Positions 11,591 to 16,247 of a stretch of 64,000 nt of DNA are shown in pieces. The stretch is taken from the IMG/VR virus record IMGVR_UViG_3300045988_161152, one strand, 5' to 3'. The notes below the pieces were generated by a model that did not search any database, was not told the DNA's origin, and was given only the letters and a program-made list of their open reading frames with translations. Made by a program: the position numbers and the translations under genes. Each line of letters opens with the position of its first letter. Position 1 is the stretch's first letter. The stretch comes from a virus (taxonomy: Duplodnaviria; Heunggongvirae; Uroviricota; Caudoviricetes).

Positions 11591-11776
11591 GTATTTTTAA
11601 GTCGCGAATGCTATCTTTTCACATCATATTGACCTTTTAATCGTTCAGGCTTATAGTGCCGCCGTCGTAGCAAATTCTGCGACCGGGTTTAGCAGCCTGA
11701 ATACTTACGCGGACAACCGCAGATTTCCGATATTGCGGTATTTTTGTGTCCGTAAACCACGTTACGCCCGAATTAT

Positions 11777-11853
11777 GGTGGGGCGTGATGGGGAGGCTTC
11801 GGCCTGCTGGTTTCGTAAGTGCCAGTCTGCTAACCCCGTCACGTCCTGCCACC
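11777..11853 (+). ncRNA. c4: c4-like antisense repressor RNA (candidate, 77 nt)
   Basis: Between operated promoter and icd; GGTGG...CCACC closing helix, internal GAGGC-UUCG-GCCUG hairpin, and AACCCCGTCACGTC segment partly complementary to the ant RBS region (GACGTTCAGGGGGG at 12101-12117); boundaries inferred. Confidence 0.4.
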
Positions 11854-11902
11854 TGTTTAGCAGCGGGTCGCAGGTTGTTTATCAACTTACGAGGCCGTAA
11901 CT

Positions 11903-14142: not shown

Positions 14143-14988
14143 ATGCTGGCTAAAGTCACTTTCCTGAGCTGTATAACGATGAGCGATTTTACTTTTTCTG
14201 GCTATGAATTGGCCTGCTTTGTAACACACTCCGGTCTATCCCGTAGCGCCGGGCATATCCTGTCGCAATGTGCAAATCTCGCGGCAACAACCAGTGAATA
14301 CTTCATTCACAAGCCTCACCGCCTGATCGCGGCAGAAACTGGTTATAGCCAATCAACCGTCGTTCGTGCATTCCGTGAAGCTGTAAACAAAGGAATTCTG
14401 TCTGTAGAGATTGTTATCGGCGATCACCGTGAACGTCGCGCTAACCTGTACCGGTTTACACCATCCTTTTTGGCCTTCGCACAACAAGCCAAAAATGCGC
14501 TGATTGAAAGCAAATTAAAGATCTCTTCAGCGGCAACCAAGGTTAAAGCTGTTCTCGCTAAGACATTGGCTTTATTTAATTTTTTATCCACACCCCCATG
14601 TCAAAATGATACCCCCTCCCCCTGTCAGGATGACGTGGCAATAAAGAATAAGAAGTCACAAGTTAAAAAAACAAAAAGATCAGTTTCCGGCGGTGCCGGA
14701 ACGACCAGACTCAAAAAATTGACTTCATGGATCGCTGAGGCAAAAGCAAAGGCTGACAATCTGCGGTTATCCAAAAAACGCGCTCAAAAACATGAGTTCA
14801 AGCAGAAAGTAGAGGCGGCAGCGCGGAAATATGCTTACCTGAAGGACAAGCGTTCTCCTGATATTGGCGGGATATCAAACTTCGATAATCTGCCGCATTG
14901 CATGACGGTAAACGAAGCTCTTAATGCGGTTTTAGCCAAAAATAAAGATAACGAACAATGGGGTATACCTGCAGGATTCAGAGGGTGA
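14143..14988 (+). CDS. repL: lytic replication initiator RepL
   Basis: 281-aa ORF downstream of kilA; RepL-like size and position (oriL expected inside). Confidence 0.65.
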   Translation: MLAKVTFLSCITMSDFTFSGYELACFVTHSGLSRSAGHILSQCANLAATTSEYFIHKPHRLIAAETGYSQSTVVRAFREAVNKGILSVEIVIGDHRERRANLYRFTPSFLAFAQQAKNALIESKLKISSAATKVKAVLAKTLALFNFLSTPPCQNDTPSPCQDDVAIKNKKSQVKKTKRSVSGGAGTTRLKKLTSWIAEAKAKADNLRLSKKRAQKHEFKQKVEAAARKYAYLKDKRSPDIGGISNFDNLPHCMTVNEALNAVLAKNKDNEQWGIPAGFRG

Positions 14989-15038
14989 TAGATTGCTCTA
15001 ATCTGGAGTCACCTGGCGTTTTCAGTTTGAGGTCGGAG

Positions 15039-15284
15039 ATGCAATCTGATTTTTTACAGTTAGCGATCGCTTTTGCAGGATATGTTTGTATTGGCTTCTG
15101 TGTATACATGATCAGCCGAAAAATGCTTGTCGATATCGACCGCAAAGAACAAGCAGAGGAGATCTTAGTATGGATTTTCTTTGGCGCGGTCTGGCCATTA
15201 GGGATCATGTTTGCTGCAACATTTCTTCTGATGTGGATATTCACCCTTCCAGGTGATTTCTATAGAAAAAAAGCCAGACATTGA
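15039..15284 (+). CDS. small membrane protein (P1 rlfA position)
   Basis: 81-aa ORF from ATG 15039 with GAGG SD; two hydrophobic segments. Confidence 0.35.
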   Translation: MQSDFLQLAIAFAGYVCIGFCVYMISRKMLVDIDRKEQAEEILVWIFFGAVWPLGIMFAATFLLMWIFTLPGDFYRKKARH

Positions 15285-15374
15285 TACAATCGTTGCGGGT
15301 GCTTGAGGCTATCTGCTTCAGGCATTACCCGAAAAGCAGATAGAAGAAAGCCCCAGATAACATTACGCGTCCTG

Positions 15375-15445
15375 CAAGACGCTTAACATTAATCTGAGGC
15401 CATATCTATGCTTAGCATACGTAGATTAGCCTCTTACCGACCAAA
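15375..15445 (-). ncRNA. sok: sok-like antisense RNA (predicted position only)
   Basis: By analogy with R1 hok/sok, antisense to the mok translation-initiation region; promoter and ends not resolved. Confidence 0.3.
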
Positions 15446-15614
15446 AGGTCAAGGAGAAGCAGGCTATGAAGCAGCAAAAAGCGATATTAATCGCTCTGAT
15501 CGTCATCTGTTTAACCGTCATTGTGACGGCACTGGTAACGAGGAAAGACCTCTGCGAGGTACGAATCCGAACCGGCCAGACGGAGGTCACTGTCTTCACA
15601 GCCTACGAATCTGA
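15408..15614 (+). CDS. mok: mok-like overlapping reading frame of a hok/sok-type locus
   Basis: 68-aa ORF overlapping hok out of frame and ending 7 nt before the hok stop, the mok arrangement. Confidence 0.55.
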   Translation: MLSIRRLASYRPKGQGEAGYEAAKSDINRSDRHLFNRHCDGTGNEERPLRGTNPNRPDGGHCLHSLRI

Positions 15615-15621
15615 AAGGTAA
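15466..15621 (+). CDS. hok: Hok/Gef-family type I toxin (51 aa)
   Basis: ATG 15466 with AGGAG SD; MKQQKAILIALIVICLTVIVTALVTRKDLCEVRIRTGQTEVTVFTAYESER; leader has 5' GGTGCTTGAGG (15298-15308) complementary to 3' CCTCAATGCACC (15669-15680), tac/fbi-like. Confidence 0.85.
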   Translation: MKQQKAILIALIVICLTVIVTALVTRKDLCEVRIRTGQTEVTVFTAYESER

Positions 15622-15694
15622 GAGACCTGGCGGGGAGAGATCCCTGCCACTCTTCGTGTGTCAGGTATCCTCAATGCACCCTTTCCTCTCCAAA

Positions 15695-15720
15695 TAAAAA
15701 AGCTCCCGAAGGAGCTTTAA
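15695..15720. terminator. bidirectional intrinsic terminator between hok locus and convergent structural operon
   Basis: AAAAAA-AGCTCC-CGAA-GGAGCT-TTT; T-run stronger on minus strand. Confidence 0.65.
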
Positions 15721-15737
15721 AATACAAGGGATGACTC

Positions 15738-16247
15738 TTAATTCCAATCAATCCAGTTGTAGACGATACGAAGTGACGGGCGCACAGCAGCAGTCACATC
15801 TTCGGTACTAAAGTCGATTGCATCACTGTAGATTTTGCAGTCCAACATTTCAATTGTTGTAGCAGCTTTTGTCACAGCGTTAACCCCGGAAGATTTGGAT
15901 TCAGGGGTAGCAGCCATCGTGATATCAACATAGTCCTTCGCCGCAATGCGATCTTTAATGAACTGAAGAATATCGCCTTCGATAGTCTCCACGCACTGGA
16001 CCTGGATTTCCCCAGAGTTTCGAATTGGACCGTGCTGGTTGAACTTCACACCATTCGGACCATAGTCCTCCACATCCTCGCGGGTCATTTCAGGAATTTG
16101 CGACGTGCGAACCAGTACGCTGATATCTTCATGGCCTGCAAAAGTGAGCTGGAATTCAGAAGATACCAGTCGTTCGCCTTTGGCCGCGTTGGCAGTATAG
16201 CGGCCCTTAATAAATTTACGGTTTCCCTTAGTGTTATTGTGCCCCAT
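15738..16247 (-). CDS. virion structural protein (tail/baseplate; P1 bplB/pmgF region)
   Basis: 169-aa ORF at the 3' end of the minus-strand head/sheath operon. Confidence 0.4.
   Translation of the reverse strand: MGHNNTKGNRKFIKGRYTANAAKGERLVSSEFQLTFAGHEDISVLVRTSQIPEMTREDVEDYGPNGVKFNQHGPIRNSGEIQVQCVETIEGDILQFIKDRIAAKDYVDITMAATPESKSSGVNAVTKAATTIEMLDCKIYSDAIDFSTEDVTAAVRPSLRIVYNWIDWN

Follow-up and report, generated by a model that had tools for sequence, protein, structure and literature searches.

The repL-bplB interval

The DNA analysed here (the window, 64,000 nt) is a P1-like phage-plasmid in which ant1/2, kilA and repL (14143-14988) lie upstream of a small cassette, and bplB (15738-16247, minus strand), pmgG, 21 and 22 lie downstream of it. 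To judge from its sequence, the cassette between repL and bplB is a complete hok/mok/sok-type type I toxin-antitoxin locus; both ORFs, both promoters, tac and fbi, ucb and the 3' hairpin are all intact. A first-pass annotation of the window had called such a complete locus beside repL. The gene upstream is indeed repL, with one small ORF in between, and the call is borne out by Rfam, Pfam, RNA folding, covariation and the mapping of the phage 933W locus. A C4 antisense RNA with its a1/b1 targets and three tRNA genes were also located (11651-11856 and 31470-33323). Immunity and tRNA features of this kind are typical of P1, which confirms that the backbone is P1-like.

In a blastn comparison of the window with P1, homology ends at 15002 and restarts at 15696. 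The segment in between (15003-15695), which holds orf81 and the hok/sok cassette, substitutes for rlfA-rlfB-pmgF of canonical P1 (NC_005856 51586-53411). P1 can do without these three genes (PMC10695390), and none of them occurs anywhere in the 64,000-nt window, so none has been relocated within it. The suspicion that canonical P1 has no hok here was correct, as P1 has rlfA, rlfB and pmgF between repL and bplB. The left junction falls inside the P1 C1 operator Orlf/Op55, of which the first 11 of 17 bp (ATTGCTCTAAT) are kept at 14992-15002, and C1 control of rightward transcription from this junction is therefore probably lost. The right junction immediately precedes the bplB hairpin on its 5' side.

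The small ORF between repL and hok, orf81 (15039-15284, plus strand), encodes 81 aa with two hydrophobic stretches. The product falls into PHROG family 3772 (phrog_3772, 'unknown function'), and it gives sub-threshold matches only with Pfam. Its TGA stop codon and the extended -10 of the hok promoter overlap. The gene accompanies hok in P1-like plasmids, not in lambdoid phages.

The window also carries phd-doc, the type II addiction module of P1 (55135-55736, promoter from 55075, plus strand), with 99.4% identity to P1 over 662 nt by blastn. The element thus has two addiction modules of different types, as the first-pass annotation had proposed.

The hok and mok reading frames

The hok toxin gene (15466-15621, plus strand) encodes 51 aa and was identified by two profile matches and by likeness to R1-type Hok. 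The ORF matches Pfam PF01848 (HOK_GEF) over model positions 2-42 of 42 with 76.3 bits (cut-off 22, E 1.3e-21) and PHROG 251 ('MokW-like host killing') with 108.8 bits. A Shine-Dalgarno (SD) sequence, AAGGAG, is located at 15451-15456, and the ATG follows 9 nt further on. The initial description of a 51-aa Hok/Gef ORF with an AGGAG SD holds on both counts.

The mok-like frame that had been noticed overlapping hok is likewise present. This leader frame (15408-15614, plus strand, 68 aa) comes from the ORF list, and its ATG at 15408 aligns with the annotated mokW start of phage 933W. An SD motif, GAGG (15396-15399), lies 8 nt upstream. In all 29 aligned hok loci (see below) an ATG stands in the mok-start column or at most 2 nt away. 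The frame begins 58 nt before hok and is consequently in a different reading frame from hok, passing over the SD and start codon of that gene. The mok product has no Pfam match, and the products of hok, mok and orf81 have no NCBIfam match above cut-off (Hok 50.2 vs 73).

Whether mok is in frame with hok is set by a 1-nt indel near 15449 in the alignment of loci. In 933W and most loci the offset is 57 nt, giving an N-terminally extended Hok; the window, Rac and R1 share a 58-nt offset with mok out of frame. The out-of-frame mok of these three fits the published view that translation of mok matters and the Mok peptide does not.

The hok mRNA and its fold

A promoter-like site was found by promoter scan at 15263-15290 (plus strand). 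It consists of TAGAAA, a 16-nt spacer and TACAAT with the TG of an extended -10, and the scan predicts the transcript to start at G15297. The position of the -10 relative to GGGTGC is conserved in all the other hok loci. From this start to the end of fbi, the full-length hok mRNA body would comprise 385 nt (15297-15681, plus strand), a boundary that draws on Rfam, homology to the Rac and 933W loci, the fold and covariation.

A match to the Rfam hok/sok models had been proposed as a check on the locus, and RF01794 ('sok') matches 15297-15471 (plus strand) over the full model with 114.9 bits (gathering score 59, E 2e-25). The model opens with tac and closes at the hok AUG, so that what it represents is the leader of hok, the target of Sok, and not Sok itself. 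The match covers the hok-encoding strand, and Sok corresponds to the reverse complement of its central part; reading the strand off an RF01794 hit would mislead.

The two ends of the mRNA body are complementary, as the first-pass annotation had seen. The translational activator element, tac (GGGTGCTTGAGG, 15297-15308), pairs with the fold-back inhibitory element, fbi (CCTCAATGCACCC, 15669-15681), in a duplex of 12 pairs with one bulged U (-19.4 kcal/mol), and fbi was assigned from this duplex energy, the full-length fold and covariation. The 385-nt RNA folds with tac/fbi closing its ends at a minimum free energy of -153.3 kcal/mol (z = -9.5; 0 of 100 shuffles as good), and the pair probability of tac/fbi in the full-length RNA is 0.976. 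The closed fold is unchanged when the downstream hairpin is added.

The ucb or anti-SD box (AAGCCCCA, 15348-15355, plus strand) was located by consensus-fold pairs between columns 56-61 and 101-107 and by the Rfam alignment. Its partner is the mok SD in the closed form of the RNA and tac once the RNA is open; in the Rfam alignment, whose model structure pairs tac with ucb, the tac/ucb helix has 7 bp. Forcing the tac/ucb conformer by constrained folding costs 11.7 kcal/mol in the full-length RNA vs 2.6 kcal/mol in its truncated form without fbi (15297-15650), where the open form lies that 2.6 kcal/mol above a minimum-energy fold that does not contain it. Constrained folding is compatible with a switch of tac to ucb, rather than proof of one, and reproduces the energetic switch in part.

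A GC-rich hairpin in the 3'-UTR (GGCGGGGAGAGATCCCTGCC, 15629-15648, plus strand) is presumed to be the protective 3' stem-loop of the processed mRNA. It corresponds to helix 15 of the consensus fold and shows compensatory changes.

For the covariation analysis, 46 hok loci were gathered from species-representative genomes, and 29 intact ones, drawn from Escherichia, Kluyvera, Citrobacter, Pantoea and Photorhabdus, were aligned. The consensus fold of the 29 recovers the closing tac/fbi helix, the ucb/SD-mok helix and the GC hairpin of the 3'-UTR, and 98.5% of the cells in this consensus structure are paired. Compensatory changes occur in 17 of 78 pairs, vs 8.6 +/- 1.8 in shuffles (0 of 500 reach 17) and 1-5 in slid controls, with the caveat that one and the same alignment supplied both the structure and its test. 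At tac/fbi column 4/403, 16 of the 29 sequences have U-A and 11 have C-G. The second half of this helix covaries too, with UUGAGG/CCUCAA replaced by UUGAGA/UCUCAA in Photorhabdus. The ucb/SD-mok helix contains one compensatory pair, A-U to G-C, in 9 loci. Compensatory changes across the 29 aligned sequences thus support the closed fold.

Short ORFs and 12-nt complementarities can in general arise randomly, and nothing else speaks for a reading in which a chance ORF and a chance complementarity coincide and there is no toxin-antitoxin locus. The Rfam match (E 2e-25), the Pfam match (E 1.3e-21), the fold (z = -9.5) and an identity of 87-91% to annotated hok loci leave this reading with practically no probability.

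The predicted Sok RNA

The annotated sokW of phage 933W maps to 15346-15416 on the minus strand, where it marks a predicted Sok antisense RNA of ~71 nt; the Sok RNA of R1 has ~64 nt. The predicted RNA begins with a 15-nt 5' tail, continues into a long hairpin (15401-15350) and finishes with a U-rich tail, and it spans the mok SD and start codon. Its fold reaches -32.9 kcal/mol (z = -6.0).

A promoter-like site for Sok (15423-15452, minus strand) was read by eye and by homology. It consists of TTGACC (15452-15447), an 18-nt spacer and TAATCT (15428-15423), with a putative start at 15416, 7 nt downstream of TAATCT. Both hexamers keep their positions across the alignment. The site escaped the automatic promoter scan because its weak -10 matches only 3 of 6 positions. 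As far as the sequence goes, the predicted Sok has the two attributes of an antisense regulator of this type, its own promoter and complementarity to the mok translation-initiation region.

The 3' end of the cassette

Similarity to other hok loci reaches as far as 15681, the substituted segment runs on to 15695, and P1 homology resumes at 15696. An intrinsic terminator had been thought to follow the locus. A hairpin is present at 15699-15718 (AAAGCTCC-TTCG-GGAGCTTT), but its T-run lies on the minus strand and it belongs to the P1 backbone: the terminator scan scored it on the minus strand only (tail TTTATTTGGA), the plus strand continues with AAAATA, and the hairpin is identical in canonical P1, where it follows bplB. 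We therefore rejected it as a part of the cassette and regard it as the bplB terminator and as a possible weak stop for the hok mRNA.

Rac-type and chromosomal relatives have a terminator of their own within a few bases downstream of fbi, whereas the window copy has none, the cassette having been captured without it. The true 3' end of the hok mRNA is probably at or beyond the backbone hairpin. With no terminator of its own and with the U-tract of the backbone hairpin on the other strand, the 3' end and the kinetics of its processing are uncertain.

Comparison with known hok systems

The closest of the known loci compared is a Rac-type prophage hok/mok (MN652886), with 90.8% nucleotide identity from the -10/tac through fbi, followed by hokW/mokW/sokW of Stx2 phage 933W (AF125520), with 87.3% over the same extent. 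Homology to these loci spans 15285/15294-15681. In Rac, 933W and the window, tac, ucb, Sok, mok, hok, the 3' hairpin and fbi come in the same order and with the same spacing, and Hok has 51 aa in all three. The mokW start and hokW of 933W map to 15408 and 15466-15621, respectively. The loci differ in detail. In 933W-type loci mok is in frame with hok and has 70 aa, whereas the 68-aa frame of the window is out of frame, like that of Rac. The bulged fbi base is U in the window and C in Rac and 933W. The Rac and 933W loci reside in integrated lambdoid prophages, the window locus in a plasmid prophage.

The R1 hok/sok system (parB) is more distant: a global DNA alignment gives ~52% identity between the two loci, with only islands conserved, and R1-type Hok (52 aa, vs 51 in the window) is 42% identical to the window Hok, with the motif TRK-LCE-R...EV-F-AYE kept. 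The architecture is nevertheless alike. Both have end pairing by tac and fbi, sequestration of the mok SD by ucb, mok-coupled hok and a Sok RNA over the mok initiation region; in both, fbi is followed by a hairpin. The R1 mok-hok offset implied by the numbering in PMC9841398, 58 nt, equals that of the window. The mechanism is presumably the same.

The Hok protein of E. coli K-12 hokD (relF, in relBEF) is 94% identical to the window Hok (locus L016). K-12-type hokD, however, is preceded by relE sequence and has no tac, ucb, mok or sok (L016, L030); the window has all four and no relBE. As an equivalog assignment the PGAP name hokD was not borne out, the NCBIfam score being below cut-off (50.2 vs 73). 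Because K-12-type hokD has no leader and the NCBIfam Hok models stay below cut-off, 'hokD' is best read, on sequence grounds, as a similarity label for the window gene and not as a statement of orthology.

A further relative, gef/hokC of E. coli K-12, has IS186 downstream. This recalls 161 sister plasmids of the window in which IS421/IS186B, in the same GC hairpin of the 3'-UTR, separates fbi from hok; the window copy itself has no insertion.

Proposed mechanism and role

We applied to the window locus the R1 mechanism as summarised in PMC9841398. A constitutive promoter (15263-15290) would make a stable hok mRNA from G15297. In the full-length RNA, tac (15297-15308) would pair with fbi (15669-15681) and ucb (about 15350-15355) would sequester the mok SD (15396-15399), so that this closed form would be neither translated nor bound by Sok. 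Slow trimming of the 3' end back to the GC hairpin (15629-15648) would remove fbi, upon which tac would switch to ucb and the mok translation-initiation region would open. In plasmid-bearing cells the short-lived Sok RNA (15416 to 15346, minus strand) would pair with the mok initiation region and RNase III would cut the duplex. Upon loss of the plasmid Sok would decay first, mok would be translated with hok translation coupled to it, and the 51-aa membrane toxin would kill the cell. Together with phd-doc, the locus would provide the plasmid prophage with a second, mechanistically independent addiction system.

The sequence elements of the window hok/sok, their positions, complementarity and conservation are demonstrated at the level of sequence, and from them we infer transcription, RNA half-lives, processing, toxicity and a stabilising effect. 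On this basis we consider R1-type post-segregational killing, adding to phd-doc, the most likely function of the intact cassette, with a probability of roughly 0.78.

The same RNA mechanism could serve another trigger. The locus would then be functional, but selected for abortive infection against lytic phages that shut off host transcription, or for competition between incompatible P1-like plasmids, rather than for plasmid maintenance. Close relatives of the locus belong to integrated lambdoid and Stx prophages, for which loss of a plasmid is no issue, and the element already has phd-doc for addiction. R1 hok/sok reportedly excludes T4 (Pecota and Wood 1996). The repL-bplB interval is, moreover, a known variable region with alternative cargo in P1-like plasmids (PMC9603915). 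Nothing in the sequence, however, separates such a role from post-segregational killing, no defence-system genes adjoin the locus, and orf81 has no informative family match. We regard a role other than maintenance as unlikely, and post-segregational killing remains the reading that we prefer.

Distribution and decay among P1-like plasmids

About 510 PLSDB records match a query that covers the 3' end of P1 repL and its junction with rlfA, and 101 of these records have the canonical P1 repL-rlfA junction. The intact repL-orf81-hok-bplB arrangement is found in 209 PLSDB plasmids with at least 99% identity; 161 further plasmids have hok followed by an IS186-family element that lies between hok and fbi. 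Among natural P1-like plasmids in PLSDB, no arrangement is thus as common as the one with hok, and the isolated phages phi456 and vB_EcoM-Ro157c2YLVW share it. The first-pass annotation had taken the locus for lineage-specific cargo. That it is absent from canonical P1 stands, but the counts of 209 intact and 161 interrupted copies vs 101 canonical junctions make clear that its spread was understated. P1-like phage-plasmids are vehicles of resistance genes, and in nature they usually have a type I addiction module besides phd-doc. Such a second, RNA-based system could help to explain the stable upkeep of these plasmids and could complicate their curing.

The position has been annotated before. 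RefSeq labels the window-type ORF of these plasmids hokD, and MH422554 names it MokW. Venturini 2019 described '2 orfs including antibacterial toxin' in place of rlfA-rlfB-pmgF and, at this place, IS186B with direct repeats GGATCTCTCC (PMC6906374). Zhang 2022 listed eight variable regions in P1-like plasmids, rlfA-rlfB-pmgF among them (PMC9603915). Public records annotate the toxin ORF only and leave out the Sok RNA, mok and tac/fbi. Literature and full-text searches for hok with P1-like elements returned no paper describing a hok/sok system in P1-like plasmids and none on the Sok RNA, mok or tac/fbi of this copy. Our finding is the correct identification of a textbook system already annotated at the repL-bplB position, and nothing here alters existing knowledge of hok/sok. 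The prevalence, the 3' hairpin as an insertion hot spot and the remnants with sok alone are modestly useful and unsurprising.

Disruption of the fbi/tac complementarity in close relatives had been named beforehand as a sign that the locus is a decaying remnant. Such disruption is seen in many relatives, 161 with the insertion element and others with hok deleted; in the window copy the complementarity is intact. In the 161 plasmids IS421/IS186B sits within the GC hairpin, between the hok stop and fbi, with 15633-15644 duplicated; NZ_CP110512 has such an IS421-interrupted allele. Other P1-like plasmids have no hok and keep only the leader (L006 2141-2672, corresponding to 14900-15431 of the window) or only 90 bp with the Sok sequence and its -10 (L007 2501-2590, corresponding to 15342-15431); NZ_CP057246 is one of the plasmids with sok only.

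These lesions bear on whether the cassette is a selfish passenger, attenuated or silent like most chromosomal hok loci, that hitch-hikes and decays. The insertion between hok and fbi is the same lesion that is known for gef/hokC of K-12 (PMC3562002) and is seen in locus L022, leader-only and sok-only remnants occur, and the native terminator is absent; all of this would suit a passenger. Every element is intact, however, in the window and in the 209 plasmids with at least 99% identity, and recurrent inactivation by insertion elements is what would be expected for an active toxin. Repeated inactivation is as much a sign of an active toxin as of decay. A mere passenger therefore seems to us very unlikely for the window copy, which we continue to read as a post-segregational killing system, although the many relatives in which the locus is disabled indicate that selection to keep hok/sok is not strong.

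The same remnants may be cast as traces of an arms race among P1-like phage-plasmids. The cassette would then be more than a simple stabiliser: an intact copy would kill the cell upon plasmid loss or upon infection or displacement by a competitor, sisters with sok only (15342-15431) would use it as an anti-addiction antidote, and insertion of an IS186-family element into the 3' hairpin would be a frequent off-switch. We offer this as a speculative, quite unlikely extension.

The GC hairpin of the hok 3'-UTR (15629-15648) is a recurrent target of IS186-family elements (IS421/IS186B; L005 6386-7722). The chromosomal hokC-like locus L022 has the same insertion-element end in the same hairpin. Laboratory P1 is not representative of the repL-bplB interval. 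In hok-less P1-like plasmids, a 198-aa ORF (phrog_7522, 'unknown function') stands in the place of hok.
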